From assembly GCA_003242885.1 (NCBI GenBank), contig QKMZ01000015.1:269568-333567 (forward strand): DNA of 64,000 nt, in the 5' to 3' direction. Shown piece by piece: positions 4,987 to 60,740 of this stretch. The notes beneath the pieces are model-generated. The model saw nothing but the letters and a program-made list of their open reading frames with translations. It was not told the DNA's origin and ran no database searches. Numbering within the stretch: the first letter of the stretch is position 1; each line of letters opens with the position of its first letter. The translations under genes were made by a program, and so were the position numbers. The stretch is from Candidatus Melainabacteria bacterium (GTDB taxonomy: Bacteria > Cyanobacteriota > Vampirovibrionia > Obscuribacterales > Obscuribacteraceae).

Positions 4987-5013
4987 TTGAAAACAAAGCG
5001 CCGACTGCGCTAG

Positions 5014-5229: not shown

Positions 5230-5678
5230 GCCGCTCTCCTTGTGAGTCTATATTTGGTATACCACCAAATGCAGAATTGGCGCGCACCTCACTTTAATTT
5301 GCTGGAAAAATCCAGTAATTCTCGCGCCTCTGAAATGCCCGGAAAGGTAGACTAGTGGAGGGATTCTGAGTTCCGTCGATGCGGGAAAATTTTATCTTTC
5401 TCGGTGATCATTTCTTACTTTTGGCATCAAAAGCACGTTCTTATAGTGCGCATTTTTTTTTGGAAAATCATGCGCGAAAAAATATCATTGGTGCATCAGG
5501 CAGGCACTGCATTTCGAATGCCGTAAGTTTTGAGATTGAAGTTGTAGGAAACCGCAGACATCCGTCAAGCCAAATCCAATCTGCCTGAATGCTGCTACTG
5601 TGTATGTGCACGTCGGAGTGATTTTTGTGGTTTTCAACGGTCGCAACACAGAGAATTCAATACGGGGCGGTATTGTCA

Positions 5679-8126: not shown

Positions 8127-8203
8127 ATTTACTCCGTGGGACGCCCTTGAACAGTGTCGAAAGAACGGCATCGAACCCCGTAGAAACCCGTTAAACACTG
8201 TTT

Positions 8204-10360: not shown

Positions 10361-10438
10361 GTCCGGCAGTAGCTGAGCCTAAACTGCCAAGACAAAGGTT
10401 TCCAGGCGATACGCGATGATTATATATGGAATATGCGC

Positions 10439-16183: not shown

Positions 16184-16256
16184 TAGGGTTAGAGGGATTC
16201 GAACCCTCTTCTCCGGTTTGAGAGACCGGCGTCCTTTCCCGGTAGACGATAACCCC
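16184..16256 (-). tRNA. tRNA-Glu (anticodon CUC)
   Basis: - 73-nt cloverleaf.
- Acceptor stem GGGGTTA/TAACCCT with a G1-U72 wobble.
- D arm GTCT..GGAC.
- Anticodon stem CCGGT/ACCGG with loop CTCTCAA.
- 4-nt variable region.
- T arm GAGGG-TTCGAAT-CCCTC and discriminator A.
- CCA is not encoded. Confidence 0.85.
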
Positions 16257-18563: not shown

Positions 18564-19010
18564 CTATAGCTCGATGGCGCTTGTTTTCACGATATATCGC
18601 AAACTTTTGCAAACCTCTTCCATCTGTTCTTCCTTTAAGCCTGGCTCGACCGGATAAGACATAATGCCGCGTCCACGAAAGTACCGGGGCAGGCTATCGG
18701 TGCGCGGGATTACGTGAACATGAAAATGCGGCACGGCTTCGCCCAGGGAAAACGTATAAATGCGCTCTGCGCCGGTCAGTTTTCGAATCAGTGACATGAC
18801 CTGCTTGAGCAATCCGCCGTAACCAGTCGCCTCCTCATCCGTCGCCTCTGTAAGGTCGAGGATGTGACGTCTTGCTTCGATGACAAGATAGCCAAGAATG
18901 TTGGTTTCGCGCGAATGCCTAACAACAAAGCTCTTGGTCTCGAGAATGATGTCTTGAGTGGGTTGCTCTTCTTGTCGTTTGCAAATCAAGCACTGGGCGT
19001 CTTTGGTCAT
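18564..19010 (-). CDS. HIT (histidine triad) family hydrolase
   Basis: Histidine triad HFHVHVIP. N-terminal CxxC-like CLIC. Confidence 0.85.
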   Translation of the reverse strand: MTKDAQCLICKRQEEQPTQDIILETKSFVVRHSRETNILGYLVIEARRHILDLTEATDEEATGYGGLLKQVMSLIRKLTGAERIYTFSLGEAVPHFHVHVIPRTDSLPRYFRGRGIMSYPVEPGLKEEQMEEVCKSLRYIVKTSAIEL

Positions 19011-19092
19011 CTGGGCATCCTTTTCGGGGCAGCGGAGACTCTATAATATGGGCTGCGCGACATATGTTAGATCGTCGGACAGAAGAAAAGAT

Positions 19093-20850
19093 ATGCTTAT
19101 TCGTTATCAAGAAGTTCGTTTGCCCAGGGTTTTCACACTGATACTACTGGCGGTGCTCTTCTGGACTGCATCCGGAAATCTGTCTGCATTTGCCGACGAA
19201 ATTACAAGCTTCGATGCCACCATTGAAGTTCAACCTGATGCATCGCTCGATGTTCGCGAAGATCTTACGGTAAAATTCGATACCCCAAACCGGCATGGCA
19301 TCAAGCGTTTTATTCCCGTAGTCTACGACCGCAAGCACAACAATTACACGATTGATCTTAAGTTGGTGGGAGTAGCGGGAACGGATGGGAAGTATGTTCC
19401 ATTCAAGACCAATCGGCAGGGCCGAGACTTTTTCATTATCATCGGCGATCCAAAGAAATCGGTTATGGGATTGCAGCAGTACCACATCCATTACACGGTT
19501 CGGCGCGCCATCAACTTCTTCGATGATGCTCCGGAAATTTACTGGAACGTGACCGGCAACGAATCACATATGCCGATTGATAAAGTGGTGGCGCGGGTGA
19601 TGTTTCCACCGGTTGCCCAGAAAGGCGAAATTCTAGCTAAAGCCTTTATCGGAGAAGAAGGTTCTACAAAAACTTCACCTTATTCTCTGGAGTTAGGAAG
19701 CGCTACTTTTACTTGTGGAAAGCTCGAACCTGGCGAAGGTTTGACAGTCGTGGTCGGCTTGCCTGCAGGACACGTCAACAAGCCTACTGAGTGGCAGGAG
19801 TTTCTCTACCTCGCTGCTGACTGGTGGCCGCTTGTGGTTTTGCCTGCGATTACACTTTCGGTATGTTTCAACATGTGGTGGTTTTTGGGGCGTGATGCTG
19901 GGAAGCGTCAGGCTGTTGCCGTCGACTGGGAACCGCCTAAAGACTTGTCTCCGGCTGAAGTCGGCACTCTTGTAGACGAGACATGCGACCTATCCGATAT
20001 GGTTTCGACGGTTGTTGATTTGGCTGCCAGAGGATATTTGACGATACGCGAGTTTAAGACTGAGTCGCTTTTCTTCTTGCGCAACAAGGACTACGAATTC
20101 ACCAGGCTGCCTCACAATGAGCGGCAGGACAAGTCTCCGCTCAATTCATTCGAGCAATTATTTCTCAATGCGCTGTTCAAGAAAGGTTACTTTCAGACAG
20201 ATACGGTGCGCCTTTCTGACTTGAAATATAAGTTCTACCTTGAGATGAGGCAGATCGAAAAAGGTATTTATCAATCGCTTATCAACAAAGGAATGTTTTT
20301 GCAAAGTCCTGAAGAGGTGAGACAGAGCTGGATTTGCATCGGTGTCATTATGTTCATTCTCTCGTTTGTTTTAGGGCCCATTCAATCGTCTTACGGGCTA
20401 GGAATGATATTTTCCTCGATTATCGTTTTTTGCTTCTCACGGACCATGCCCGCGCGCACGCGTAAGGGGTGCGAGGCACTTTATCAATGTCTCGGATTTC
20501 AGCGATTCGTCAAACTGGCTGAGAAGGAAAGAATCAAAAAGCTTGTCACGGATGATCCGACAATCTTCGGGCGTTTGCTGCCTTATGCCATGGTCTTGGG
20601 TGCAGCAGACCAGTGGGCAGAAGCCTTTAAAGATCTAGTTGTCTCGCCGCCCGACTGGTACATCTCGAGTGGCTCGAGATTTCAAACTTACTCATTCGTG
20701 CGTGACATTGGAGACAGCACACGCACAATGGGGCAAACATTTACCTCCATGCCATCATCATCATCTTCCTCGGCCGGCTCGGGTGGCAGCGGATTTAGTG
20801 GTGGTTCTTCCGGCGGGGGCTTTGGCGGTGGGGGAACAAGCAGTTGGTGA
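19093..20850 (+). CDS. DUF2207 family membrane protein (paralog 1)
   Basis: - Signal-like N-terminus.
- ITSFDATIEVQPDASLDVREDLTVKFDTPNRHGIKRFIP.
- Internal TM helices.
- Gly-rich C-terminal tail ending GGGFGGGGTSSW.
- Clear paralog of 58926..60740.
- Start taken at ATG 19093 (ORF opens at 18958). Confidence 0.8.
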   Translation: MLIRYQEVRLPRVFTLILLAVLFWTASGNLSAFADEITSFDATIEVQPDASLDVREDLTVKFDTPNRHGIKRFIPVVYDRKHNNYTIDLKLVGVAGTDGKYVPFKTNRQGRDFFIIIGDPKKSVMGLQQYHIHYTVRRAINFFDDAPEIYWNVTGNESHMPIDKVVARVMFPPVAQKGEILAKAFIGEEGSTKTSPYSLELGSATFTCGKLEPGEGLTVVVGLPAGHVNKPTEWQEFLYLAADWWPLVVLPAITLSVCFNMWWFLGRDAGKRQAVAVDWEPPKDLSPAEVGTLVDETCDLSDMVSTVVDLAARGYLTIREFKTESLFFLRNKDYEFTRLPHNERQDKSPLNSFEQLFLNALFKKGYFQTDTVRLSDLKYKFYLEMRQIEKGIYQSLINKGMFLQSPEEVRQSWICIGVIMFILSFVLGPIQSSYGLGMIFSSIIVFCFSRTMPARTRKGCEALYQCLGFQRFVKLAEKERIKKLVTDDPTIFGRLLPYAMVLGAADQWAEAFKDLVVSPPDWYISSGSRFQTYSFVRDIGDSTRTMGQTFTSMPSSSSSSAGSGGSGFSGGSSGGGFGGGGTSSW

Positions 20851-22874: not shown

Positions 22875-24947
22875 TTACGGTGTCGCTGTGCTCTTCTCCG
22901 GGTTTGGCTGATGGCTCAGGATGATTCGATTGCGCCCTTGTTTTTTCGCTTCATACAGACGTGCGTCAGCCGTCTGAATCAGCTCGTAAATCGACTCTCC
23001 ATCCTCCGGGTAGCTGGCCATCCCGCCGGAGAAGCTGCATTTGAATTCTTGCCCATCGTCACCGGTGAAAACCATCTCTCGGAATTCTGCAAGCACTCTA
23101 TTGATAGCAGCGTGCATGGTTTCTTTTGATTCACGTCTGAATCCCAGAATGAATTCTTCTCCGCCCCAACGACCGCGTAGATCTTCTACTCTAAAACGCC
23201 GTGCCAGAAGCTGACCCAGCCCGGTGAGAACTTTGTCGCCAGCAAGGTGTCCGTAGGTGTCGTTGACATTTTTGAACTTGTCCACATCGAGCAGACAAAT
23301 CGTAAAAACTGATTTGTTGCGTTGCCCGTCCGCGAGCAGTTGAGCGAGCTGCTCTGAGAATGCTCTTCTCAAGAGCAATCCCGTGATCGTGTCTTTGTCT
23401 GATCTGTCTTTCAGCATACGCGCGCGATCGAGTCTGACCTTGACGCGAGTAAGCAGCTCTTCGTTGACCACCGGCTTGGGAAGGTAATCATCGCCGCCTG
23501 AGCGGAATGCTTCCAATCTGTTTTCCACACCGGTTTGTCCTGTGAGGAAGACAATCGGCAGATCTTGCCAGCGCGGAATCTGGCGCAGCATGCGGCAAAC
23601 CTCGAAGCCTGTGATACCAGGCATCATGACGTCGAGCAGAAGCAATTCCGGCGGGAAATCTTGCATTACTTCCAAAATTTTGTTCGGATCTGTGAGAATG
23701 CGCACGACTACGCCCTCATTGCGAAGAATGAGCGCAATGGTGTTGGCAAAAAACTCGTCGTCATCGACGAGCAAAATGCGCGGTCTTCCACCGGTGCGAA
23801 TTGCTACCAGGTGTTCGACAGCTTTCTCCAAAGAGTCAGATTCGAGCGGTTTATCTAAGTAAAGCGACGCGCCTGCGTGTGCTGCTTCAACACGATCTTT
23901 GACGAGCGCGTTGCCGGAAATAAATGCTAATGGAAGGGTTTCATATCCGGGCAAATTTCTGAGTTCTCGTGCCAGTTTGAATGACTCATCAGGCACTTCA
24001 GCATGCACATTTATCAGGGCCGCATCCAAGGGCAGGATGCAAGCGCGATCTAGTGCTTCTCTAAAAGTTTTGGCACGAACGATCTCCACGAGCCTTTGTT
24101 TGCCCAGTTCTTCAACGATATCCAAAAATCCGTCGTCCGAATCGACGACAAGAATTCTGGCCATCGATGCTGGCGCTTCCTCGCTTTGTCCTTCCTCTTC
24201 TTTTGCATTGACTACTGAAGCGACATCCTGAGCCTCTTTTTCTCCGAGAATTTTGGCGTCAGCCAATTTGCGATCTACGTCAGCCCAGATGGACATTTGC
24301 TCGCTGGCTGGCTTTTCATGCATGGTGGCAGCAGCGTGCTCAATGAAGAGCATACATTCGCTTACTTGTCTGAATCCCAGAGAGCCGCCTGTACCCTTGA
24401 TTTTGTGCGCTTGCGAACGAACTTCCGCCAATAGGGAAGCATCTTCCGGATCTTCTTTTGACTTGTTGATTGCAACTGCAAGGTCTTCCAGTTTTGATGG
24501 CAACATGCGCGCGTATTTTGAAACGAGCGCTAAGAACATCGTCTCGAAATCTTTGAGCTTACTGGACTGCGGGTCTTCGGGGCTGAGCTTGCCTTCCAAT
24601 TGAGCGCCGAAAACGAAAGGAATCACTGGCTTGTTAACTGCAAGCACGACTCCTAGTTCGCGCTCTAGGCGTTCGCGATTGGCGTGCAATTCTGGCTGTG
24701 ACGCCGCGATAAAAGTAACCGGAATCTTGTTGCCGGTTGCTCGCAAAGCTGTGAGCCAATCAAAGCAATTGTCGTCCGGCAAAGGTGCGCCAAGGAGCAC
24801 CATATCCAGATTCTCTTTCTGGATGACGCCTTTGCCTTCTTTGCCGCTCTCGACCTGAATAACCTTATGACCACGCCCTTCAAGCACAGGCACAATCAGC
24901 TTGCAGAATGATTTATCCTGTTCGACTAGAAGGATGTTTTTTCCCAT
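22875..24947 (-). CDS. multi-domain response regulator / diguanylate cyclase (pseudoREC-Hpt-pseudoREC-REC-GGDEF)
   Basis: - REC1 has the acceptor position changed (DMVLLGAPLP).
- Hpt motif AHKIKGTGGSLGF.
- REC2 is also changed (LDAALINVHAEVP).
- REC3 is canonical (LLLLDVMMPGITG...LPKPV).
- GGDEF domain with GGEEF, and an RVED I-site five residues upstream. Confidence 0.85.
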   Translation of the reverse strand: MGKNILLVEQDKSFCKLIVPVLEGRGHKVIQVESGKEGKGVIQKENLDMVLLGAPLPDDNCFDWLTALRATGNKIPVTFIAASQPELHANRERLERELGVVLAVNKPVIPFVFGAQLEGKLSPEDPQSSKLKDFETMFLALVSKYARMLPSKLEDLAVAINKSKEDPEDASLLAEVRSQAHKIKGTGGSLGFRQVSECMLFIEHAAATMHEKPASEQMSIWADVDRKLADAKILGEKEAQDVASVVNAKEEEGQSEEAPASMARILVVDSDDGFLDIVEELGKQRLVEIVRAKTFREALDRACILPLDAALINVHAEVPDESFKLARELRNLPGYETLPLAFISGNALVKDRVEAAHAGASLYLDKPLESDSLEKAVEHLVAIRTGGRPRILLVDDDEFFANTIALILRNEGVVVRILTDPNKILEVMQDFPPELLLLDVMMPGITGFEVCRMLRQIPRWQDLPIVFLTGQTGVENRLEAFRSGGDDYLPKPVVNEELLTRVKVRLDRARMLKDRSDKDTITGLLLRRAFSEQLAQLLADGQRNKSVFTICLLDVDKFKNVNDTYGHLAGDKVLTGLGQLLARRFRVEDLRGRWGGEEFILGFRRESKETMHAAINRVLAEFREMVFTGDDGQEFKCSFSGGMASYPEDGESIYELIQTADARLYEAKKQGRNRIILSHQPNPEKSTATP

Positions 24948-25063: not shown

Positions 25064-26026
25064 TTATCCAACTTGGCTAATGCTGATTGTTAACTGGTTT
25101 CGAGCCGGCACACCACGTACTTGAACCTTGACAGGCTGATAAAATCCCCAGGGCTCCCCGGCGTATCCGACAGGAGCGACGACCGTAATTTCGGTAGGTG
25201 AAACGCTCACGATTTGGCATTGCAGCGGACCAACATAGACAGAAATGTCCGACTGATTTGGTGAAAAACCTTCCCCGTAGATTGTGAATTGACTGCCCGG
25301 CGGCACCCAGCTGGCGCTCAGGCTGCTGAGATAGGGATAGCTAGCGACAGTCGCTGCCAGTGTCCCTGCTTCCATTCCGCCCACTGATACGCTCACCTTT
25401 GAGCTGCTGCTATCGGCGTAATCGGGCACTTGCACGATCAATTTGTCCGATGACGCTGACAGGCAGCGCGCTCGGTGGGTGCCGAACATGACGACGTTAG
25501 CATCCGGATCGCTGGAAAAATTGCTGCCGAGAATGGTGACCGAATGACCTGGGCTGACCTGGCTCGGATTGAGGCTGGTGACTGTCGGCTGATTTGTCGT
25601 CAGCTTCCAGCTGAATGTGGAACCGCGCTGACCTCCCGCTGTGATCAACATTTGATTTCCGCCCCAAGTCAGCTCACCTGTAACATCTACACTCAAGCTG
25701 CGCTTTCCGCCGAATTCATTTTCAGATACGAAGTGCATCGTCGGTGATGCGATGCGCAACCATTTGAATCCAGGCGCGCTGGCAGAGCCATTGTAGTAAG
25801 TCAGTGTCAGCTGAAGTTTTTCTTGTCCCTTTTGCAAGTTGATCGTTTCTGTGATGCGCTGAATCTGATTGTTGGGTGCAACCATTGGCTGTGACTGCGC
25901 AAGCACAACTTCATCTGCATGCGCGGCACATGGGAAAAGTGTGGAGACGAATAACGCCATTGCGGGCAGCGCCTTGATAGCAATACTTCGATATATAGAA
26001 AACTTAAAGCACGTCGATAAGTTCAA
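25064..26026 (-). CDS. secreted protein with two IPT/TIG-like domains
   Basis: Signal peptide ending AHA-DE. Also PTVTSLNPSQVSPGHSVTILGSNFSS...VMFG and LSSLSASWVPPGSQFTIYGEGFSP...VYVG. Confidence 0.6.
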   Translation of the reverse strand: MNLSTCFKFSIYRSIAIKALPAMALFVSTLFPCAAHADEVVLAQSQPMVAPNNQIQRITETINLQKGQEKLQLTLTYYNGSASAPGFKWLRIASPTMHFVSENEFGGKRSLSVDVTGELTWGGNQMLITAGGQRGSTFSWKLTTNQPTVTSLNPSQVSPGHSVTILGSNFSSDPDANVVMFGTHRARCLSASSDKLIVQVPDYADSSSSKVSVSVGGMEAGTLAATVASYPYLSSLSASWVPPGSQFTIYGEGFSPNQSDISVYVGPLQCQIVSVSPTEITVVAPVGYAGEPWGFYQPVKVQVRGVPARNQLTISISQVG

Positions 26027-26045: not shown

Positions 26046-26759
26046 TCACTCTTTTAGCCTTTTCCAATTTGATTTTGCAGCTTTTTGAAAGTTGCGTACA
26101 TCTGCTTTTGATAAGCCGCTTATCTCTTCGCCGAATTCATCGTTACTCGCTTTTTCCACCGCGAAATAATGGTAAAGCAAGTAGCGAATCATTGACTGTG
26201 CTTCCGGTGGAACGGTCAGATCCAGCTGCGCGCGCTTGAGTTCTGCCTCATCGACAAAACCATTTTTGTTAACGTCCAGTTTGTCGAAGTGCGCAAGAAA
26301 TAATTCTTCTGCATTGGCAGGACCGAGTATGTCGGAAATATTTCGCAGAAGCTCCAGAGCTCGTCTTTCTGCTTCGGGATGATTGCCCGCACAGCCCATG
26401 GTTTCTGCTTCTATGGCAAGCGCTTGTTCTATTACTTCCTTTGCTTCCGGCAATGCATTGTGCCGTGCGTAAAATCCTGCCAGCTGCGTGCGTGTGAGAA
26501 ATGGCAGTGCCAGTAATTCTCTGTAAGCGGAAAGCAGCTCTGGCAGCGCGTCTTCCGGTAGATGCTTGTTGGCAGGAGAAACACCATTGCGCGATCGATC
26601 CAAGGCAGTGTTGAAGTCACGCATGTATTCCGCACGCGGCAAGCTGTCGGCGGCTTGAACAGCGCGCCTGTACTCGGCTTCCGCTTCTTGAAGATCCTTT
26701 TTCAATTCCAATTGTTTTGCGTTATTGGAATGAATATATGGGTTTGGCACATCTTCCAC
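26046..26759 (-). CDS. helical protein with a canonical EF-hand Ca-binding loop
   Basis: DVNKNGFVDEAE fits the 12-residue EF-hand loop (D-x-N-x-N-G-x-V-x-x-x-E). The rest is helical and TPR-like. Confidence 0.55.
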   Translation of the reverse strand: MEDVPNPYIHSNNAKQLELKKDLQEAEAEYRRAVQAADSLPRAEYMRDFNTALDRSRNGVSPANKHLPEDALPELLSAYRELLALPFLTRTQLAGFYARHNALPEAKEVIEQALAIEAETMGCAGNHPEAERRALELLRNISDILGPANAEELFLAHFDKLDVNKNGFVDEAELKRAQLDLTVPPEAQSMIRYLLYHYFAVEKASNDEFGEEISGLSKADVRNFQKAAKSNWKRLKE

Positions 26760-26819: not shown

Positions 26820-28295
26820 TCAGCGTTTGCGTGGATTGGGCCAATTCAACTCAGCGCAAGCATCGTCGAAGCTGGTCCTCATACGGCTGCAGTACTGCAG
26901 TGCAATAGAAATTTGTTCTATTTTCATTACGCCATCGCGAAGCATTGGCACGCAGATGATGGCTGCTTCAAAGGTTTTGTCATCGAGTTTGTTGGCAGCG
27001 CCCAAGATTTTGGAAATGTCACCGCCATGTTTTTTGCGAACTTCGTTGGCTGTTTGAATGTCATTGTCAGTCAAAACTCCAGAGCGTACGAGCAAGTCGA
27101 GTGCGTCTTTTACAGACACCATTGCCTGCGCGGGGGCGCCACCACTTTGCGGCGCGCCGCCTCCGCCTGAAGATCCGGGGGCACCGTCTGCTAGTTCTTG
27201 CATAGCTACAGTAATGAATTGCTCTATAGTTTTTCCTTTGTTGTGATATCGGGCCAGCACGCGCGCTGCATCGCGCGCTGTCAGCTGTTTTTCCTCAACA
27301 AGGTCTTGCATTCTTATGGCTGCATCGAGCGATTGGCTGTTGAGCAAACCTGATTCAAGAAGAAGATTGTTGAGCGTGACATCAGTTCGTTTTGAGATTA
27401 ATCCCATATCGATGGGCATTGGACCTGGCCCGCTGGAAGGTGCCGGAGGCGGCGCTGGTGCGGGATAGCCGGGCTGGGGCGGTGGATATCCGGGTTGCGG
27501 AGGCGGATATCCAGGCTGCATTTGCGGATAGCCCGGCGGTTGCATTTGTGGTGCCGGATAGCCTGGCTGGGGGGGCGGATAGCCCGGTTGGGGCGGGGGA
27601 TAGCCTGGTGCCGGCGGCATGCCCGGATACTGTCCTGCCGGAGGCATACCAGGTTGCATCGGATATCCCGGCTGTGGCGGGTATCCTGGTTGCGGAGGCA
27701 TTGGTGGCATGGGCGGTGCCATTTGAGGCATCGGTTGCGGCACCGGAGGTGGTGGCGGAGCAGGAGGAGGCTCAGGCCTTGGCAGTGGATCCGGATATAC
27801 CGAAGACTGCGCCGGCATGCCGCTGTGAGTGCTTCTAGAAAGACTGTCGGTGACGCGTTGCTTCCAAATATCGTCCGGTTTTTTAACTTCTTCTTGTGCT
27901 TGAGCGGCAAGTGCCTCCGGGCTCGGTCTCAATTCTTCCGGAATAAATCCGCTTGATACTGGGGCCGCGCTGCCTTGACTCGTAGACATGATAATCATCT
28001 CGAGTACGAAATCGAGATCAGAGGGCGGAAATCCTTGGCTAAACAACATTGCATTGTCGCCGCCCGCTTCGTCATAAAGTGTCCAGACCGGGAAATCGCC
28101 ACCTTTTTCCCACAAAACCATAAGTAAGAAATTTCGGCCGACACCTGACCACGGCAATTCGATCGTGGTTCCCCGCCTGCGCTCGCACTCGTCAAACATA
28201 GTGCGAACCAATTTCATATTCGGCTGCTGCGGTTCGTGCGGCAGCCTCATGTTTTTGGGCGGCTCTTCCTTCTGCTGTGGTTTAGGCTTAAACAT
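26820..28295 (-). CDS. unknown N-domain + P/G/Y/Q-rich spacer + MshEN/T2SSE_N-like repeats (paralog A)
   Basis: 491 aa and a paralog of 49886..51607 at both ends. The C-terminal repeats include LNNLLLESGLLNSQSLDAAIRMQ and LVRSGVLTDNDIQTANEVRKKHGGDISKILGAAN. Confidence 0.75.
   Translation of the reverse strand: MFKPKPQQKEEPPKNMRLPHEPQQPNMKLVRTMFDECERRRGTTIELPWSGVGRNFLLMVLWEKGGDFPVWTLYDEAGGDNAMLFSQGFPPSDLDFVLEMIIMSTSQGSAAPVSSGFIPEELRPSPEALAAQAQEEVKKPDDIWKQRVTDSLSRSTHSGMPAQSSVYPDPLPRPEPPPAPPPPPVPQPMPQMAPPMPPMPPQPGYPPQPGYPMQPGMPPAGQYPGMPPAPGYPPPQPGYPPPQPGYPAPQMQPPGYPQMQPGYPPPQPGYPPPQPGYPAPAPPPAPSSGPGPMPIDMGLISKRTDVTLNNLLLESGLLNSQSLDAAIRMQDLVEEKQLTARDAARVLARYHNKGKTIEQFITVAMQELADGAPGSSGGGGAPQSGGAPAQAMVSVKDALDLLVRSGVLTDNDIQTANEVRKKHGGDISKILGAANKLDDKTFEAAIICVPMLRDGVMKIEQISIALQYCSRMRTSFDDACAELNWPNPRKR
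27414..27797 (-). repeat. coding low-complexity tandem repeat (PQPGYPP units)
   Basis: Residues about 167-294 of the 26820..28295 product are almost only P, G, Y, Q and M. This region also spawns long spurious ORFs in other frames. Confidence 0.8.
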
Positions 28296-49675: not shown

Positions 49676-49885
49676 GCTGTTTTCTCAATCGTTTTTTTGC
49701 CTTCGGTCTCTATCGACAATATCATGTAGCATTTTTACCTAACCTGCAAAGCCCGGTTAGGTGGTTTGAATGAGGCTCCACGGGTCTGATAAAGCTGGAA
49801 TTGCTTACTAAATAAGATATATAGGTTGATCACTGTTTTCAGGCGGGCACAATTATTCTGAATATTAAATAGTGGGACCTCGTTG

Positions 49886-51607
49886 ATGTACAAACCGAAG
49901 CGCCAGGTTCGCCTGGACCCGATGAAATATCCGCCCCGTATGAGTGACCTGAGGAATCTTCTTCAGGAGGCCACCGTAAATAAGGGTTGCACAGTTGAAT
50001 TGCCGTTTGCTGCGATGAACAGCAAGTGGAGTTTGACCGTCAGGTCTGAAATCGGCGGTACACAGGAGCCCATGTGGACACTTTATGAAGGCGAAGGCTC
50101 CAGTTCGCGAGTCGTGTGGAGCACGCCGTTTGATGACGTTGAGCTTTTGCAGGACGTACTGCATTTGTCTCTGCCTCAAGACCTTCAGAAAGTAGCGATG
50201 CCGCCCGAGGTCGCTGCCGCGCCAGCCAAGTCCGAGCCCGAGCCTAATGGCCAGCCCGACGCCCCGCACTCTTTTGCCGCGTTCGATAAGTCGAGCGCGC
50301 TTATGAAAGAATCGCATACGAATATGCCTGCAGCACAGCAGCCGCAAGCGCCTGGACAACAGCCAGTCAATCCGCAACAACAGCCGAATCAACAGCAGCA
50401 GATGCCACCGGAGCAGCAGATGCCGCCCGGATATCCGCAACCAGTTCCCCCTGGTTATCCACAGCAAATGCCACCTGGCTATCCGCAGCAAATGCCGCCT
50501 GGTTATGGATATCCGCCTGGTTATCCGCAGCAAATGCCGCCTGGATATGGTTATCCGCCGGGCTACGGCTACCCGCCTGGCTATGGATATCCGCCTGGTT
50601 ATCCGCAGCAGATGCCTCCGGGATATGGCTATCCACCTGGATACGGCTACCCTCCGGGCTATCCCCAGCAGATGCCGCCTGGTTATCCGCCGCAACAAAT
50701 GCCACCAGGGTATCCACAACAACCCGGCTATCCTCAACCGCAAGATCCTTCTCAGCCTGCTCAACAAGGGCAGAACGCTGCGTCTGGAACTTACCCTGCA
50801 CACCAAAATCCTTATGCATCTGGAAGTTATCCTGCGGTCGAGCCCTACGGATCTGGCTCTTATCCTGCGATTGGTGGCGGTGGAAAAGATTTGATCGAGA
50901 AGCGTCCCAATTTCTTGTTGGGTCATTTCCTCGTTGAGGCAGGCTTGATTCCAGAACCAACTCTTGATGCGGCTTTGCAGTTGCAGGGGATGGTTAAGGC
51001 TGGTGCGCTCAATCCGAAACAAGCTGGTGAAGCGGTTCGCCGCGCGCACACACGTGGTGGCAAAGTAGACACAAATACTTTTACTGCAACGCCTGCTAAG
51101 AAAGTAGATTCTTCGGACATCCAGGGAACCGCGCCACCGCTTGGTCAAGTTCTCATTGAAGCCGGTCTGATAAGCGTTCCTGTTCTCAAAGCAGCTTTGA
51201 ATTTGCAGGAAGTCGTTCGTACTGGTGCATTGACTCGTGAAGAAGCACTGGAGGCTTTCATTCGAGAGCATTATGGTGTCGACGCAAAAAGCGCGCGCAA
51301 AGCCATCGCTAAGAATTCCATGGATTCGAAAGTTATCGGCTTGCTTGTAAAAGCTGGCTTGCTCACAGAGCAAGACGTGCAAACTGCTCAGACAGTGAAG
51401 AAGAAGCACGGCGGCGATGTGGTCAAAATTCTGACTGCGGCCGGCAAACTCGATAAGGTCTTGCTTGGCGCTGCGAATCAGTGCCATGATCTGATTGAGC
51501 AAAAACGATTGAAGGTTGAACAAGCAATCATCGCGTTGCACTATTGCGAGAGAATGCGAGTAAGTTTTGACGATGCGGTTGAAGAGATGGGATGGGAAAA
51601 GCCATAG
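49886..51607 (+). CDS. unknown N-domain + P/G/Y/Q-rich spacer + MshEN/T2SSE_N-like repeats (paralog B)
   Basis: Begins MYKPKRQ (paralog A begins MFKPKPQ). Shares the N-domain, (PPGYGY/PPGYPQQM)n repeats and C-terminal repeats, and ends SFDDAVEEMGWEKP. Confidence 0.8.
   Translation: MYKPKRQVRLDPMKYPPRMSDLRNLLQEATVNKGCTVELPFAAMNSKWSLTVRSEIGGTQEPMWTLYEGEGSSSRVVWSTPFDDVELLQDVLHLSLPQDLQKVAMPPEVAAAPAKSEPEPNGQPDAPHSFAAFDKSSALMKESHTNMPAAQQPQAPGQQPVNPQQQPNQQQQMPPEQQMPPGYPQPVPPGYPQQMPPGYPQQMPPGYGYPPGYPQQMPPGYGYPPGYGYPPGYGYPPGYPQQMPPGYGYPPGYGYPPGYPQQMPPGYPPQQMPPGYPQQPGYPQPQDPSQPAQQGQNAASGTYPAHQNPYASGSYPAVEPYGSGSYPAIGGGGKDLIEKRPNFLLGHFLVEAGLIPEPTLDAALQLQGMVKAGALNPKQAGEAVRRAHTRGGKVDTNTFTATPAKKVDSSDIQGTAPPLGQVLIEAGLISVPVLKAALNLQEVVRTGALTREEALEAFIREHYGVDAKSARKAIAKNSMDSKVIGLLVKAGLLTEQDVQTAQTVKKKHGGDVVKILTAAGKLDKVLLGAANQCHDLIEQKRLKVEQAIIALHYCERMRVSFDDAVEEMGWEKP
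50423..50737 (+). repeat. coding tandem repeat (18-nt PPGYGY and 24-nt PPGYPQQM units)
   Basis: Directly visible reiteration of ccgcctggttat(ggatat)/ccgcagcaaatg units. Confidence 0.85.
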
Positions 51608-51613
51608 CCGCTG

Positions 51614-52450
51614 ATGTCTAATCAGGAGAAGAAACTGGTCTTTCTTGGCGTTGGCCAGGTCGCTCGGGCGCTGGCTCAGATTGTTTTGGACAATTCTCAG
51701 GCAGATAAGACTGCGAGCAATTACAAACTGTTTGGCACCACGCGCAGTGCTGAGAGAGTTGCAGAAATTCGCAAACTTGGCATAGAACCGCTTATTATAG
51801 AAACGTTCGAAGTCGTTGCGACACATCTCGATGACGCTCTGGTTGTGGTCTCCTTTCCTCCGAATGCAGAAGCAGACGACGCCGCTTGTCGCGCAGCGAG
51901 AAATGCAGCCGGAATCGTCTATATCTCTTCCACCGCTGTCTACGGGAAGAGAGAAGGGTTGGTCGATGAGAACACAGACGTTGAAGGCGAATCTCCTCAT
52001 GCAAAGGCGCGCCTAGACGCCGAGCAAAAGTGGCTACAAGTAGGAGCGTCGATTGTGCGCGCGCCAGGCATTTATGGTGGCGGCAATGGTATGCATCACA
52101 GGCTTTTGAGTGGAAACTATCGTTTGCCGGGCGATGGCAGCAATTTTGTTTCGCGTATTCACGTCCATGATTTAGCTTCGATGATTGTTAGCGTTCTTGA
52201 GCTAAACCAGCGAGGTCGAATTTATCTCGCCGGAGATAATCAACCAACAACGCATAGAGAGATAGTTGAGTGGCTTGTTCAACGCCTTAATCTTCCGTTT
52301 CCCGACTCAATTCCACTCGAGCAGTGTCATTACACTCAGCGCGGCAATCGCCGCGTCGACGCTTCAAAATCAATTAAAGAACTTGGAGTCACATTGAAGT
52401 TTCCCACCTACAAAGACGGTTATTCTCACGAATTGAATATGGGCACTTAG
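51614..52450 (+). CDS. NAD(P)-binding Rossmann-fold protein (atypical extended SDR / epimerase-like)
   Basis: KLVFLGVGQVARAL Rossmann motif, YISSTAVYG and RAPGIYG. Starts 6 nt after paralog B. Confidence 0.65.
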   Translation: MSNQEKKLVFLGVGQVARALAQIVLDNSQADKTASNYKLFGTTRSAERVAEIRKLGIEPLIIETFEVVATHLDDALVVVSFPPNAEADDAACRAARNAAGIVYISSTAVYGKREGLVDENTDVEGESPHAKARLDAEQKWLQVGASIVRAPGIYGGGNGMHHRLLSGNYRLPGDGSNFVSRIHVHDLASMIVSVLELNQRGRIYLAGDNQPTTHREIVEWLVQRLNLPFPDSIPLEQCHYTQRGNRRVDASKSIKELGVTLKFPTYKDGYSHELNMGT

Positions 52451-53606: not shown

Positions 53607-55232
53607 TTACCCGGGGAACCGGCGCTTCGGCGCATGAAATGGGAAGGTGAAGATAGTGTTGCCGATTGGCACTGTAATCATCACTTCTTCTTTGCGAGTG
53701 TTGAGGTAGAACAGCTGACCTGTTCTAGATTCGAACGGCTCCAGAGTGACTGGCACTAAGCCGAATGCACCTTGGTGGCGAGAGCGCACGAGGTCCTCTT
53801 CAATGACGGCTTGTGCTTGTTCTTCAAGCTCTTCAGGTGAGCGATTTAGCATGAACTTTTCGGGCGGTAAAATACGCTCTGTTCCGCCCCATTTGCCGTA
53901 GATGCCAAAAATATTCGGTCCGCGAAACATATCATGTCCCTTTGCTGGAACAAATCCGCGGACAACCCGTGTCTTTTGAATATTGGCTAGCCATGGGCGA
54001 TTATATGTGTAATCCCACATCGTTCGCTCGCGACGTCTGTAGTCGAAAGTGTTTTCCGGTATCAAAAGAAACGGTTTGTGAGGTTCGGCCAGTTCTGTGA
54101 GATTTGCCTTGCCGAGCCCGAGATCGACGCGTTTGTCGCCGATGTTTGTTATGCAAATCAGCACGCCCAGGATTTCCCAGCAGTCAACAATTGTGCATGC
54201 GACGCGTACTTGATTTGTGGCGAGGTACTTAAGCGGAAAGTCTGCGTCGGCGAACTCTTGCGACCTGGGACTTCCATCTTCCCACTTGAAGCGCACGCTG
54301 CCCTGGATTTTTGGTGGTTGTTCGAAGTTGACCGATTTGTCTTTGATACTGTAAGAACGCTCGAAATAGTCGCGCGAACGATTGCGTTTTCCGATTGAAT
54401 GATAAAACATTGCCGCATCACGCAGGGCATCAGCCAGATCCATAGAACGAGTACCGGGGCTCTGCTCCAAAATCTCTAGACCCTTTTGAAAGTCAGCGTG
54501 TGCCTCTTCACTCCAACCCTTTGCGCCGGCAATCGCTCCTCTGATGACGTAGCTCTCGCCAAGGTCGTGATCATGCGGATCCAGAAGTCTCTTTCTGATT
54601 TCCAGCGCTTCTTTTATTAGAGGCTCTGCTTTTGCAATCTTTCCTTGATGAAAAGCCACAGCTGCTGCGCCGTGCAACGCATGTGCGTACTCGCGGCTAC
54701 TCGTCCCATGCAGTTTTTTAGACTGGTCAATGCATTGCTGGTAAGTTTCTCCAGCTGCAATGTACTTCTCTTCGTGGAAGTATGCGTCTGCAAGGCCAAG
54801 GCGCGCAGCAATCAGTTGATCTGGCGTGGCGAAAAGCTTCTTCGCCTCTTTTATAGCTTCGAGAAATTTGCTTTGAGCTTCCTCATCAGCCCTTATTGCA
54901 GACGCTTTGAGGCCAGCGTTCATCAGGCGATCGAACATGCTTGCAGTTGAAGGCAAAGTCTGCGTCACTGCCGCTGAGGCCGCTTGGGTTGTACGTTTGA
55001 GAACTTGTTTCTCTCCATCGTCCGACTTTTCTGTTTCTATGTCTCTCTTGTTTGTTGTGTCCGCGCTGTCTCGTATTTTTGTGATGACTGAATTTTCGGT
55101 ACTTTCCGAGCGCTCAGCCTTCTCTTTTGAGTCGTCTGCAAAGTCGTCTGCATTTGCGGGCAAGGCTGCACCGAGAAAAAGCGCTGCGGACAGCGCCAGG
55201 CAAAGCGTTTGTCTGTAATAAGCCTCAGGCAT
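53607..55232 (-). CDS. secreted TPR protein with an unknown roughly 250-aa C-terminal domain
   Basis: The Met at 55232 gives signal peptide MPEAYYRQTLCLALSAALFLGAALPANA. Its ATG overlaps the kinase stop (ATGCCTGA). TPR units lie in the middle. The ORF opens at 55280. Confidence 0.7.
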   Translation of the reverse strand: MPEAYYRQTLCLALSAALFLGAALPANADDFADDSKEKAERSESTENSVITKIRDSADTTNKRDIETEKSDDGEKQVLKRTTQAASAAVTQTLPSTASMFDRLMNAGLKASAIRADEEAQSKFLEAIKEAKKLFATPDQLIAARLGLADAYFHEEKYIAAGETYQQCIDQSKKLHGTSSREYAHALHGAAAVAFHQGKIAKAEPLIKEALEIRKRLLDPHDHDLGESYVIRGAIAGAKGWSEEAHADFQKGLEILEQSPGTRSMDLADALRDAAMFYHSIGKRNRSRDYFERSYSIKDKSVNFEQPPKIQGSVRFKWEDGSPRSQEFADADFPLKYLATNQVRVACTIVDCWEILGVLICITNIGDKRVDLGLGKANLTELAEPHKPFLLIPENTFDYRRRERTMWDYTYNRPWLANIQKTRVVRGFVPAKGHDMFRGPNIFGIYGKWGGTERILPPEKFMLNRSPEELEEQAQAVIEEDLVRSRHQGAFGLVPVTLEPFESRTGQLFYLNTRKEEVMITVPIGNTIFTFPFHAPKRRFPG

Positions 55233-57123
55233 TTTTTTCTTCGTTGTCATCGTCGTCATCGTCTTCGTCTTCGAGATCATCGTATCCGGGCGGAGACTCA
55301 GGTAGTTTAAACCAAAACGTACTTCCTTTTCCCTCTTCTGACATGAGCCCTAGCTGACCCCCGTGCTGCTCGACAATTGCCTTGCAAATCGCCAAACCCA
55401 GTCCGCTGCCGCCCTTTTGCACACGGTCAGGGGTATTGACTTGCTCAAAACGCTCAAAAATTGATTGGTGATATTTTTCAGGAATTCCCGCTCCCCTGTC
55501 TATTACTTTTACTTCAGTAAGTGACTTGTTGACTGATGTGTCAACCGTTATTTTGCTGTTGTGAGGAGAGTATTTGATGGCATTGGAAAGCAGATTGACA
55601 AGCACTTGCACAAGCCGGTCGGGGTCTGCAATCAGCTGTGCCGATGTGCCGGTTTTTTCCAGCTTGATGTTTTCTATTTGAGCAAGATTGTGCACAGCGT
55701 CGAAAGCTCGCTCCACAATTTGATCCATGTCGCATTGTTTGTAGTTCATACGCAAGCGCCCAGCTTCCAATTTATCGATGTCTAGCAGATCGTTAATGAG
55801 TTTTATCAAACGCGTAACGCTGCGCTCGGCCAAGGCGACACTCTTTTGCCCTTGCGCGTTGAGTTCGCCATATATGTCTTCGGCAAGCAACGATAGGAAA
55901 CCCTGGACAGACGTCAGAGGTGACCGTAGTTCGTGGCTGACCATCGACACGAATTCTTGCTTAATACGTTCAACTTCGCGTCTCTCTGAAATGTCGAGAA
56001 TTACGAGCATGAATCTTGCTTCTTCAAATGCTTCGAATTCATTCACCGAGACTTCTACTGGGAATGACTCACCATCGGCTTTTGCGGCTTCAAGTTCTAA
56101 AATATGGTTGCGACCTTTTGTCAAAAGTTTTTGCAAAACGTCTTCAAGACCGGAAGCGGCTTCTTTGGGAAACAGCTTTTGAACGGGCAGGCCGGAGAGT
56201 ACCTCGATATCGTATGCGAACATTCTCTCTGTTGCCGGATTGATAGATTCAATCGCGCCTTCTTTGTTGATAATGATCAGCCCCGTCGGCATGGTTTCTA
56301 CGATTGTTCTTACGCGCTTTTCCGATTGCTGCAGGTTTTCCAAAACAGCATGCTCTTTCTCTGCTGCAACTTTTAATGCAACAGCCATTTCGTTGAAGAC
56401 CTTGTCCAAGTGGGCAATTTCGTCACCCCCCGGCAGTCGTGGGTTGAGTGGCAAACCGCTGGCAAGGCGATAGGTATTGTCCATAAGAACATTGAGTCGA
56501 CGCGCGGTGCCTCGATTGAAGTACACTGCTAGTGAGATTGCGATAATAATATTGAGCACAACGCCGGCAAGAAGAAGCTGTTTTGTTTTTTCCCGCGACT
56601 TAGCCTGCAGTTTGGGGCTGAGGTCTTCGATTTTGCGTTCTTCCAGAGCGAGTGTGTCGAACTTCGCCGCCAGCATGGGAATTTTGCTGCGCATGGAATT
56701 GAGGTAGCTTCGCGCTGATGCTTGTTCGCCCGAATCAATCATTTTTTTGACAGTGCGAAAATCGCTCACTGCGCTGTTCAGAAAAGCCTCCAGGTCATCG
56801 ACCTTTCTTTCTTCTTCCTTGTTGCCCGCGACCAGTTGCTTGAGTTCTTTAAAAACTTCGGGAATCAGCTCAGAGGCATGGTGGTAGCGCTGCGCCATGC
56901 TGAAGGTGCCAATCAGACCGTAGCCGGAAATGCCAGCAGCTTGTTGCGTCATCAGTGAGTGCAGCTTGTTCAATTCTTTGGAGATGGCACGGGCTCGTGC
57001 CTCGCGCTGGACTTCGCGCTCTGTTTCATTGAGCATCTGATACAACGTGGCGACGAACCCCAGCTCGAATATGAGCGGGATAGCAACTAGTATCAGACCT
57101 TTGTGGGAGAGCTTGAGTCTCAC
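55225..57123 (-). CDS. sensor histidine kinase (TM - helical sensor - TM - HAMP - PAS - HisKA - HATPase_c) with a poly-acidic tail
   Basis: H-box VSMVSHELRSPLTSV, N-box LVNLLSNAIKYSP, G2 GGSGLGLAICK. The C-terminus is YDDLEDEDDDDDDNEEKNA. Confidence 0.85.
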   Translation of the reverse strand: MRLKLSHKGLILVAIPLIFELGFVATLYQMLNETEREVQREARARAISKELNKLHSLMTQQAAGISGYGLIGTFSMAQRYHHASELIPEVFKELKQLVAGNKEEERKVDDLEAFLNSAVSDFRTVKKMIDSGEQASARSYLNSMRSKIPMLAAKFDTLALEERKIEDLSPKLQAKSREKTKQLLLAGVVLNIIIAISLAVYFNRGTARRLNVLMDNTYRLASGLPLNPRLPGGDEIAHLDKVFNEMAVALKVAAEKEHAVLENLQQSEKRVRTIVETMPTGLIIINKEGAIESINPATERMFAYDIEVLSGLPVQKLFPKEAASGLEDVLQKLLTKGRNHILELEAAKADGESFPVEVSVNEFEAFEEARFMLVILDISERREVERIKQEFVSMVSHELRSPLTSVQGFLSLLAEDIYGELNAQGQKSVALAERSVTRLIKLINDLLDIDKLEAGRLRMNYKQCDMDQIVERAFDAVHNLAQIENIKLEKTGTSAQLIADPDRLVQVLVNLLSNAIKYSPHNSKITVDTSVNKSLTEVKVIDRGAGIPEKYHQSIFERFEQVNTPDRVQKGGSGLGLAICKAIVEQHGGQLGLMSEEGKGSTFWFKLPESPPGYDDLEDEDDDDDDNEEKNA

Positions 57124-58925: not shown

Positions 58926-60740
58926 ATGAAATTTCTCAGCTCAAAGGTCGCCGGACTGACGAGGCTGACTTTACTGGCATGTGTTCTTTTCGTCTCAACC
59001 AATCCCGCGCTCGCCGATCGAATCAAGTCTTTCAACGCTGACATCAAGCTCGACAAAGATGGAACAGCACATATTGAAGAGACTCTCGTCATGGACTTCG
59101 GAACCAATCGCCGTCATGGCATCCGGCGTTTCATCCCGACTGTCTACAACCGCAAGGGCGGTTTGTACAACATCGTATTGAATGTTACCGGCGTTAAGGA
59201 TCAAAGAAATAACCCATACAAGTTCGAAACCCACAGAGCTGATCGAGATTTGCTTTTGCAGATTGGCGAGCAAGATGTACTCGTCTCCGGCGTGATGACG
59301 TACAAAATCGATTACGACGTGCGGCGCGCGATCAATTATCTTGAGGGTGGTCCGGAATTTTACTGGAACGTCAACGGCAACGAAGGCAAATTCCCTGTTG
59401 ATTCCGCTACCGCAAAACTCTCGTTTCCTGACGGCGTCAACGTCAAAGACGTCAAAGCTACATCGTATGTTGGTTATTTCGGATCTAAAAAACATGCGAG
59501 TGTCGCGCGAGAAGCGAATGACATCACATTCAGTGCCAAGAATTTAAACCCAGGCGAAGGGATGACTATTGTCGCCGGACTGCCGGCATCGGCTATACCT
59601 CAACCAACAAAAGCGCAGCAAGTTCAAGATTGGTTTTTAGATTGGTATCCGCTCGTGGTGCTGCCGCTCGGCACTTCTGTAATGCTTTATCTCTACTGGT
59701 TCTTCCAGGGCAAAGACAGAGGTCCAAAACGTGCAGTCGGTGTCGAATTCACTCCACCTGTTGATCTCACCCCAGCGGAAGTTGGCACATTGATAGATGA
59801 GAAAGTTGATCTGCCAGATGTCACTTCAACACTGATTGATCTTGCTGCCAGAGGTTACATCAGGATTAGACAGATACCGTACAACGGCATTCTCATGATG
59901 AGCGACAAAGACTATGAGTTTAAGAAATTGACTCCGCCTCACAATGCGATTCCTCTGAAGCAGCACGAAACATTTTTTATGGCAGCGCTTTTCGGATATG
60001 TAACCGACACAACTTATTTGTCTTCGTTGCAAGGTAAGTTTCAGCCACATATCGTGGATATCAAAAACTCAATTTGGTCGCAGTTGCTAAACGGTGGTTA
60101 TTTCACTCGCCATCCGGATAATGATCGCGCCCTGTTCCGGGCGATTGGACTTGGATTGATTTTGGTGGCAGGTGGATACATGGCATTCCACACGTGGAAC
60201 GAAGGTGTTGCCGGTGGGGCAGGTTTGGCACTTTCGGGCTTGATCACTCTTTTGTCAGCGGGGGCAATGCCATCGCGTACTGATCTTGGGACTAAAGCGC
60301 TTTCAGAATGCCTCTCATTCAAACGATTTGTAGAAAAGGCTGAAAAACAGCGCATTGCTGTTCTTGCGAAAGATGACCCAACAATATTCGGACGACTTTT
60401 GCCTTACGCAATGGTTTTAGGCTGCGCTGACATGTGGGCAGAGAAATTCAAAGAATTACTTGTAACGCCTCCAGACTGGTATCAACCATACACAGATGGA
60501 AATTCGCCTTCAGTATTTGATCCTGTCTGGTACTTCGATGACCTTGGACGTGGAATGTATTCGATTCAGAATGGCTTCAATCAAGCACCAGTGATTCCAT
60601 CCTACTCCTCGGGCGGAGGTGGTGGCGGTGGTAGTAATGATGGTGGCTGGGGTGGTTTCGGCGGTGGTGGCGGATTCAGCGGATTCGACGGTGGTTTTAG
60701 CGGCGGCGGATTCGGTGGAGGCGGCACGGATTCTTGGTAA
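58926..60740 (+). CDS. DUF2207 family membrane protein (paralog 2)
   Basis: Signal peptide, IKSFNADIKLDKDGTAHIEETLVMDFGTNRRHGIRRFIP, internal TM helices, and a Gly-rich tail ending GGGFGGGGTDSW. Confidence 0.85.
   Translation: MKFLSSKVAGLTRLTLLACVLFVSTNPALADRIKSFNADIKLDKDGTAHIEETLVMDFGTNRRHGIRRFIPTVYNRKGGLYNIVLNVTGVKDQRNNPYKFETHRADRDLLLQIGEQDVLVSGVMTYKIDYDVRRAINYLEGGPEFYWNVNGNEGKFPVDSATAKLSFPDGVNVKDVKATSYVGYFGSKKHASVAREANDITFSAKNLNPGEGMTIVAGLPASAIPQPTKAQQVQDWFLDWYPLVVLPLGTSVMLYLYWFFQGKDRGPKRAVGVEFTPPVDLTPAEVGTLIDEKVDLPDVTSTLIDLAARGYIRIRQIPYNGILMMSDKDYEFKKLTPPHNAIPLKQHETFFMAALFGYVTDTTYLSSLQGKFQPHIVDIKNSIWSQLLNGGYFTRHPDNDRALFRAIGLGLILVAGGYMAFHTWNEGVAGGAGLALSGLITLLSAGAMPSRTDLGTKALSECLSFKRFVEKAEKQRIAVLAKDDPTIFGRLLPYAMVLGCADMWAEKFKELLVTPPDWYQPYTDGNSPSVFDPVWYFDDLGRGMYSIQNGFNQAPVIPSYSSGGGGGGGSNDGGWGGFGGGGGFSGFDGGFSGGGFGGGGTDSW

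Follow-up and report, generated by a model that had tools for sequence, protein, structure and literature searches.

In a 64,000-nucleotide (nt) stretch of DNA from a Candidatus Melainabacteria bacterium (contig QKMZ01000015.1, positions 269,568 to 333,567; hereafter the window), one gene, which we call B, encodes a C-terminal array of helical units that is almost certainly homologous to MshEN_N, the alpha-clip helix hairpin. Two of these units carry a single 24-residue MshEN motif each, lacking the partner motif of a canonical cyclic di-GMP (c-di-GMP) site. We put the chance at about even that B responds to c-di-GMP, which would make it a candidate non-canonical receptor. The product comprises an N-terminal domain, a low-complexity middle and an all-helical C-terminal region (amino acids (aa) ~336-573). 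ATG 49886 is likely the start because orthologs begin MYKPK or MFKPK; a TTG lies one codon upstream, and the TAG stop occupies 51605-51607. The parts of the gene are as follows.

49886-51607, + strand: gene B, complete coding sequence, 573 aa plus stop (open reading frame (ORF) scan)
49886-50200, + strand: N-terminal alpha/beta domain, aa 1-105 (alignment, AlphaFold2 (AF2))
50201-50890, + strand: low-complexity linker rich in P, Q, G and Y, predicted disordered, aa 106-335
50915-50986, + strand: unit 1, orphan MshEN motif LLGHFLVEAGLIPEPTLDAALQLQ, aa 344-367, strict pattern match
50987-51061, + strand: unit 1 extension GMVKAGALNPKQAGEAVRRAHTRGG, a truncated half motif without the (R/K/L)LGxx start, aa 368-392
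51137-51208, + strand: unit 2, orphan MshEN motif PLGQVLIEAGLISVPVLKAALNLQ, aa 418-441, strict pattern match
51209-51277, + strand: unit 2 extension EVVRTGALTREEALEAFIREHYG, a truncated half motif, aa 442-464 (alignments, AF2 helices H108-123 and H128-140)
51329-51487, + strand: unit 3, GSPII-like 24+5+24 module, KVIGLLVKAGLLTEQDVQTAQTVK / KKHGG / DVVKILTAAGKLDKVLLGAANQCH, aa 482-534
51488-51604, + strand: conserved C-terminal cap DLIEQKRLKVEQAIIALHYCERMRVSFDDAVEEMGWEKP, aa 535-573, predicted local distance difference test score (pLDDT) 94-98 (alignment)

Two orphan MshEN motifs

An earlier reading of this DNA, made from the sequence only, had described the two 24-residue stretches of units 1 and 2 as fitting the MshEN consensus everywhere except at the leading Arg. 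This fit is real and non-random. When the strict pattern LGxx[LVI][LVI]xxG[LVI][LVI]xxxxLxxxLxxQ was run against a six-frame translation of all 64 kb, it returned exactly two matches, both in B, where 1.8e-5 would be expected; among 200,000 shuffled versions of the last 250 aa of B, only one contained a strict match. The absent leading Arg is no obstacle, because PilF GSPII-B has K and L at position 1 and the extended consensus accordingly reads (R/K/L)LG (PMC11731258). Unit 1 of B begins LLG; in PilF, L at position 1 is associated with high affinity, the K167L variant binding c-di-GMP at 2 nM (PMC11731258).

A functional MshEN site consists of two 24-residue motifs separated by a 5-residue spacer, 53 residues in all, that fold into a four-helix bundle (PMC5013675, PMC11731258). 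Each guanine rests on three leucines arranged as a triangle, two from one motif (positions 17 and 21) and one from the other (position 2); the terminal Gln and the backbone amides of residues 3 and 4 add further contacts (PMC5013675, PMC11731258). The intact motifs of B are 74 residues apart. Each is followed by one residue and then by a truncated copy that starts at motif position 6 (GMVKAGALNPKQAGEAVRRAH for unit 1 plus its truncated copy, EVVRTGALTREEALEAFIREH for unit 2 plus its own), so that both lack the spacer and, beyond it, the opening (R/K/L)LGxx of a second motif.

Taken literally, the two matches could mean that each 24-mer is a self-sufficient canonical site and that B binds two ligands in the manner of MshE. 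Both 24-mers do match the consensus at all specified positions bar position 1, and B as a whole passes the MshE-related profile described below. We nonetheless regard this as very improbable: in the solved complexes one 24-mer binds half a ligand and needs a second motif five residues on, the profile covers the two clean units only within positions 1-26 of 53, and the 29 residues upstream and downstream of each clean motif are low-complexity, disordered or non-matching, as judged by alignment, AF2 and inspection. One might also suppose that motif I lies hidden upstream of units 1 and 2. We rejected this: the residues there are either rich in G, S and Y or little conserved, their pLDDT is low, and opposite motif I of the related array of paralog C (see below) they form no more than a linker with many gaps.

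Profile and structure searches

The NCBIfam model NF053729 ([quoted passage not shown]) has 53 positions and a cutoff of 38 bits. Whole B scores 46.8 bits (E = 1.9e-12), above the cutoff. Unit 1 alone scores 24.5 bits over profile positions 2-24, unit 2 24.0 bits over positions 1-26 and unit 3 17.3 bits over positions 5-41, and B therefore passes only through summed partial matches. Failure in a profile test had been named as refuting the proposed motifs; here the whole protein passes, while each unit falls below the cutoff with partial coverage. Pfam gave no relevant match on A, B or C (the two paralogs are described below), and B has no match to PF14332 (PatA_N). The NCBIfam NfrB models match paralog C and unit 1 of B weakly.

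When all PDB sequences were searched with a profile of 17 orthologs, the only matches were pilus ATPases of the MshEN/GSPII kind, with PilF (6f8l) first at E = 1.4e-5, then PilB and MshE; single-sequence searches were weak (E at least 0.054 for B and at least 0.0038 for C). The AF2 model of aa 324-573 is all-helical with a pLDDT of 86.7. Units 1 and 2 each form three helices (short, long and medium), and in unit 1 the second motif helix merges with the start of the truncated copy into a single helix, H34-48, followed by H54-66. Local Foldseek comparison of the C-terminal model aligns it with MshE (5htl, probability 0.89 over 60 columns), PilF (6ejf, root-mean-square deviation 1.9 A over 48 columns) and PilF GSPII-A (9g1w), in each case with an E-value that is not significant. 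The top Foldseek ranks for the whole C-terminal model were designed helical repeat proteins with a template modelling (TM) score of ~0.16, which is meaningless, and we discarded them. Homology to MshEN_N is secure, but the same cannot be said of a place for B among the domains that functionally bind c-di-GMP. The earlier MshEN interpretation of B is thus partly supported: it stands as far as descent is concerned, but not as regards the canonical two-motif site, which is absent from the clean units.

Unit 3 is the stretch of B that scores best against PilF GSPII-A and GSPII-C in the PDB sequence search. It had been called a classic T2SSE_N unit, and its 24+5+24 spacing is indeed canonical, but its contact residues are degenerate and Pfam T2SSE_N does not match it. 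Across the family, position 3 is I, L or V in its motif I and S, V or A in its motif II; L21 is variable; and position 24 is mostly R or K in motif I and Q in just 16 of 39 sequences in motif II. In XpsE, substitutions of the unit 3 type are linked to loss of c-di-GMP binding. The cap that follows unit 3 is common to B, paralogs A and C, all relatives and the operon-partner proteins at loci L067 and L069 discussed below.

Paralogs and the origin of the array

The window holds two paralogs of B.

16411-17703, - strand: paralog C, 430 aa, three complete 53-residue MshEN_N modules and one degenerate module, same cap (tblastn, NF053729)
26820-28295, - strand: paralog A, three-part like B, a single orphan motif TLNNLLLESGLLNSQSLDAAIRMQ with G3 replaced by N (NF053729 23.8 bits, below the cutoff)

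Paralog C, which the sequence-only reading of B does not mention, is the most useful protein to compare with B. It has neither the N-terminal domain nor the PPGY linker. It scores 108.9 bits in total against NF053729, its modules giving 35.6 bits (positions 2-50 of 53), 41.0 bits (positions 1-53), 36.8 bits (positions 1-52) and 23.1 bits (positions 4-47). By profile score, the best candidate in the window for canonical c-di-GMP binding is thus paralog C and not B. The two proteins align by BLASTP at E = 1e-21, with the clean motifs of B falling on motif II and the following helix of complete C modules, and motif I of C falling opposite the linker between the units of B (aa 393-417, before unit 2), which is poorly conserved and of low pLDDT. 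B therefore resembles a C-type array minus motif I in two of its modules, and on the strength of this alignment paralog C appears clearly to be the evolutionary template of B. Paralog A, as had been suggested, resembles B at both ends: it starts MFKPKPQ and ends SFDDACAELNWPNPRKR.

One member of a paralog C cluster carries the Joint Genome Institute (JGI) label "predicted small secreted protein". We rejected secretion, since none of the three proteins (A, B and C) has a visible signal peptide. Just downstream of C lie a tRNA gene (16184-16256, - strand) and a Ser/Thr kinase gene (15071-16090, - strand).

Conservation across the family

Our family search found 39 relatives of B. A scan of species-representative genomes gave 61 loci, nearly all in metagenome-assembled genomes of Obscuribacterales/Melainabacteria, including Candidatus Obscuribacter phosphatis; the closest, JAVLKG010000001.1, is 99% identical in the C-terminal region. 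Where both ends of the gene could be located, a single ORF of 502-695 aa covers N-terminal domain, linker and array in 53 of 54 loci. The hallmarks of the family are a WTLYEGEG-type N-terminal domain, a P-rich linker, one or more orphan motif units, a degenerate unit and an ALHYC..R..F..A..ELGW cap. The spacing of the motifs is 69-74 residues in every ortholog that has both, across ~50 species-level genomes and down to ~38% identity.

In the family alignment the contact residues of unit 1 are close to invariant (L2 in 32/34, G3 in 33/34, L6 in 34/34, G10 in 30/34, L21 in 33/36 and Q24 in 36/36). Unit 2 is similarly conserved, whereas unit 3 of these proteins varies freely at the corresponding positions, a contrast that fits selection acting on ligand contacts in the two clean units and not on the fold alone. 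The most conserved segment of the family is AEAVRRAH.RGG in the unit 1 extension, where A57, E59, A60, R63, H65, R67 and G69 (fragment numbering) are invariant and V61, R62 and A64 are kept in at least 90%. The basic patch of this RRAH helix, directly after unit 1, could stand in for the missing contacts.

It is also possible, if on balance rather unlikely, that the array of GSPII-type hairpins is a protein-interaction scaffold that binds no nucleotide, the conserved L, G and Q serving packing or a partner. The unit scores against NF053729 are consistent with this, as the canonical two-motif site is missing in B; PilF GSPII-A, which has one good motif, does not bind; many MshEN homologs, XpsE among them, have lost binding; and unit 3 and the cap are conserved like units 1 and 2 though they are without ligand residues. 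Against it, known non-binding GSPII domains drift at G3, L21 and Q24, whereas in B these positions hardly vary in the two clean units and do drift in unit 3. Partners for such a scaffold could be components of type IV pili or secretion systems, as they are for PATAN domains and for the N-terminal regions of PilB-type ATPases, and we return to both points below.

In one relative, P0028 (355 aa), a Ser/Thr kinase domain (PF00069), represented by its C-terminal end, runs directly into B-type units 1-3 and the cap, without N-terminal domain or PPGY linker; kinase fusion is an architecture class already listed for MshEN. The exact sequence of B is absent from a collection of 15 billion proteins, and its named relatives are "hypothetical protein".

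The N-terminal domain and c-di-GMP modules

The N-terminal domain of B (N-domain) is modelled by AF2 with a pLDDT of 84.6 and the topology b-a-b-b-b-b-a, and W64, L66, Y67 and G71 are invariant in its alignment. Foldseek did not assign its fold: the best hits were scattered over a ribosome hibernation factor, Whirly and C-Ala, with a best E of 0.055 and TM scores of at most 0.45.

An exhaustive profile search recovered 380 cluster representatives, and the domain is N-terminal in all of them. Among 98 sampled N-domain proteins, NF053729 matches 48, GGDEF occurs in 24 and PatA_N (PATAN, PF14332) in 23. The second architecture runs N-domain, linker, PATAN, GGDEF. The GGDEF domain of these sister proteins has a dead A-site, with [FY]ETFxY in place of GG[DE]EF, and in 9 of 9 aligned sequences an RxxD I-site lies five residues upstream. 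Degenerate-GGDEF receptors for c-di-GMP, among them PelD and PopA, are recognised by just this combination of a dead A-site and a retained RxxD. Taken together, these architectures suggest that sensors of c-di-GMP share the N-domain as an output domain. That the other architectures of the N-domain are c-di-GMP modules argues against a scaffold that binds no nucleotide, while the binding of a PATAN domain to the N-terminal region of PilB1 speaks for it (bioRxiv 10.1101/2021.06.11.447907).

In two of three readable loci, an N-domain/PATAN/GGDEF gene is followed after 2-6 nt by a paralog-C-like array gene.

L067: N-domain/PATAN/GGDEF gene 8001-9656, array gene 9663-10955
L069: N-domain/PATAN/GGDEF gene 4001-5794, array gene 5797-7059

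The array genes encode 420-430 aa, resemble paralog C (E = 3e-18 and 1e-26) and end in the same cap as B. B and A thus have N-domain and array in one protein, while L067 and L069 have them in adjacent genes of an operon, a link of the Rosetta-stone type; judging by gene order, the pairs look like the architecture of B divided over two genes.

The window also encodes a probable source of the ligand.

22875-24947, - strand: gene with Hpt, receiver and GGDEF domains, three Response_reg stretches and a GGEEF motif, predicted to be a probable active diguanylate cyclase

With this REC-REC-GGDEF protein and its GGEEF motif, the organism very likely makes c-di-GMP. The gene lies 1.9 kb from paralog A, and between the two, on the same strand, are a TIG-domain gene (25064-26026) and an EF-hand/TPR gene (26046-26759).

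The linker and its repeat

In its best 100-aa stretch the linker is 93% P, Q, G and Y. As proposed earlier, an 18/24-nt repeat of the PPGY type lies between the two ends of the gene, and Tandem Repeats Finder locates it here.

50413-50723, + strand: tandem repeat array encoding (PPGYGY)/(PPGYPQQM)n, periods 18, 24, 42 and 78 nt

B contains 14 copies of PPGY, 6 of PPGYGY and 6 of PPGYPQQ. A comparison of copy number between strains had been recommended, and between close relatives the number does differ: the ortholog at locus L001, whose N-domain is 96% and whose C-terminal region is 94% identical, has 12 PPGY to the 14 of B, with indels at unit borders, and loci more than 91% identical have 11-15 PGY in linkers of 199-230 aa. 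Over all orthologs the linker spans 167-344 aa with a P, Q, G and Y content of 38-72%; the more distant ones have 38-60%, and 0-8 copies of PGY. Since copy number varies and the repeat sequence is not conserved, we take the repeat to be a fast-evolving, slippage-prone spacer and not a conserved functional sequence.

The abundance of PPGY, together with the presence of a long P-rich linker in all orthologs, might instead mean that this region defines B, as a structural or condensate-forming protein or as a ligand carrying PY motifs (PPxY), the tail being an oligomerisation module. This seems to us highly improbable. Neither the sequence of the repeat nor its copy number is conserved while the flanking domains are, the P, Q, G and Y content falling to ~40% in more distant orthologs; some members (P0036) are nearly without a linker, and no signal peptide is visible.

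An antisense ORF of 711 aa without stop codons (49865-52000, - strand) covers B and its repeat, and L001 has an equivalent at 5141-5932 on the - strand. Public gene calls split B-type genes at the repeat into a C-terminal fragment of ~240 aa and a spurious antisense ORF. As gene callers choose the antisense ORF, most relatives of B in databases are C-terminal fragments, and the real architecture of B is hidden in most of them.

Neighbouring genes

The sequence-only reading was accurate about the immediate surroundings of B: the gene is divergent from a histidine kinase gene, with a gap of 210 nt, and a Rossmann-fold gene begins (ATG 51614) 6 nt after its stop, the spacer being CCGCTG.

51614-52450, + strand: Epimerase-like Rossmann gene, probable operon partner of B (Pfam Epimerase, 23.2 bits)
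53607-55280, - strand: TPR gene, convergent, after the Epimerase-like gene, kept beside B orthologs to ~40% identity
47045-49675, - strand: divergent histidine kinase gene upstream of B, with HAMP, PAS, HisKA and HATPase_c domains

An Epimerase-like gene stands directly downstream on the same strand in most B-ortholog loci, again to ~40% identity. The conservation of these Epimerase-like and TPR neighbours suggests, from gene order, a functional link to the gene pair. Comparison of ortholog loci places the histidine kinase beside B only in the closest relatives, and for that reason we rejected it as too weak a candidate for a functional partner. Between its HisKA and HATPase_c domains, at ~aa 700-745, this kinase has an inserted low-complexity stretch that is specific to the strain (STPRAGATPRAGATHQSNVGSTPCVDRSDSDSNNIGAESSDSDD, in which TPRAGA is duplicated), and the L001 ortholog (838 aa) is without it.

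Neither the window nor the conserved synteny has pilus or secretion genes beside B, as one might expect if the array were a scaffold for such machinery. An Rfam scan of the whole window gave one tRNA only, hence no c-di-GMP riboswitch upstream of B, and the promoter and terminator scan gave nothing above chance.

Elsewhere in the window, the gene at 8204-10360 (- strand) encodes an unusual fusion of an NDH-2-like pyridine nucleotide-disulphide oxidoreductase with a cyclic-nucleotide-binding domain and CBS domains. Two DUF2207 membrane-protein paralogs lie at 18958-20850 and 58926-60740 (both + strand), the first with a Gly/Ser-rich tail, SSSSSSAGSGGSGFSGGSSGGGFGGGG.

A model for B and the case against it

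The data show the homology, the orphan placement of the motifs, the conservation of their contact residues, of the architecture and of the synteny, and the association of the N-domain with further c-di-GMP modules. Ligand binding by B, the cooperation of its half-sites and an output are what we infer from them, with non-canonical sensing of c-di-GMP as the likeliest function. B would act in the cytoplasm as a signalling adaptor specific to one lineage, the order Obscuribacterales (Vampirovibrionia/Melainabacteria). Its array would derive from a paralog-C-like chain of complete 24+5+24 modules, in which units 1 and 2 would have retained only motif II and the next helix, and unit 3 would have retained the spacing while its contact residues were lost. 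The ligand may be held by the two orphan half-sites together, or by a half-site with the conserved RRAH helix after unit 1. Binding of c-di-GMP might then alter the conformation or the assembly state of the array, and so change what the N-domain, as a partner-binding output domain of ~100 aa, engages. The P/Q/G/Y region would be a disordered spacer, variable in length and copy number and made by the slippage-prone 18/24-nt repeats.

Several observations weigh against a response of B to c-di-GMP. None of its units contains a complete 53-residue site, as the NF053729 coverage makes plain, and 0 of 3 single units reach the 38-bit cutoff. Pfam T2SSE_N (PF05157) gives no match, at E up to 10 for B and up to 0.1 for A and C, and the Foldseek E-values for the 5htl, 6ejf and 9g1w matches, at 2.5-6.6, are not significant. 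In MshE and PilF each guanine is contacted by leucines of both motifs (PMC5013675, PMC11731258). PilF GSPII-A, with one near-perfect and one degenerate motif, fails to bind c-di-GMP, and reintroducing the consensus is not by itself sufficient to bring binding back (PMC11731258, PMC12002112). Relatives with a single orphan unit (P0030, P0031, P0036, P0039) also hold a perfect motif, so that pairing of units 1 and 2 within a chain is not a general rule; if the ligand is bound, half-sites may pair between chains as well as within one. Finally, we found no experimental work on any family member in the literature.

One specific form of the response can be spelled out, although we consider it unlikely: B could be a split MshEN receptor in which one c-di-GMP is clamped between orphan half-sites, making the protein an assembly or scaffold switch under c-di-GMP control. 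The half-sites would be the two clean units of a single chain or, in relatives that have one unit, those of two chains, assisted by the invariant RRAH helix, and the ligand would drive closure or dimerisation rather than dock into a preformed bundle. A prion-like linker rich in Tyr, Pro and Gln would tether the array to an output domain that may also serve receptors built from PATAN and a degenerate GGDEF.

MshEN is one of only two truly widespread receptor modules for c-di-GMP, and the rule so far has been two motifs for one ligand. Isolated half-sites kept by strong selection throughout an order would mean either that the rule is broken by ligand-induced pairing or that the motif has a second, ligand-independent role, and either outcome would sharpen the motif-based prediction of c-di-GMP receptors. 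For the Obscuribacterales, an uncultured lineage that is sister to the cyanobacteria, our literature search found nothing on c-di-GMP output, and this family offers a first handle on it. The N-domain is a previously undescribed family, which two independent architectures connect with c-di-GMP modules. If the split receptor proved true, this output domain would define a new effector family for these non-photosynthetic relatives of cyanobacteria.

Comparison with known systems

B has the same 24-residue helix-turn-helix motif as MshE of Vibrio cholerae (PDB 5HTL; Wang et al. 2016, PMC5013675), and its array corresponds to MshEN_N without the T2SSE_N1 subdomain, like known "MshEN_N only" proteins. 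In MshE two motifs 5 residues apart form a four-helix bundle around one c-di-GMP, whereas those of B are 74 residues apart in predicted three-helix units; MshE also has an ATPase domain, which B lacks.

The best matches to B in the PDB, by profile and by structure, are GSPII-A, -B and -C of Thermus thermophilus PilF (6EJF, 6F8L, 8PDK, 9G1W; PMC11731258, PMC12002112). PilF likewise has a tandem GSPII array with units degenerate to differing degrees, and the K or L that works at position 1 of GSPII-B may be compared with the LLG of B unit 1. The binding-competent domains of PilF keep both motifs, however, and B, with one good motif per unit, is in this respect like GSPII-A; unlike GSPII-A, it keeps the terminal Gln.

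Cyanothece cce_1044, a stand-alone (MshEN_N)2 protein, and paralog C are both small, soluble and made of MshEN_N modules only. Unlike B, they have complete 53-residue modules and neither an N-terminal domain nor a P/Q/G/Y linker. E. coli NfrB (PMC8669469) joins a complete MshEN to a glycosyltransferase where B has no enzymatic domain, but as in B the MshEN part is a C-terminal regulatory domain outside the secretion ATPases. The PelD/PopA class is related to B through its N-domain: B itself has neither GGDEF nor PATAN, and the N-domain sister proteins share with this class the dead A-site and the RxxD.

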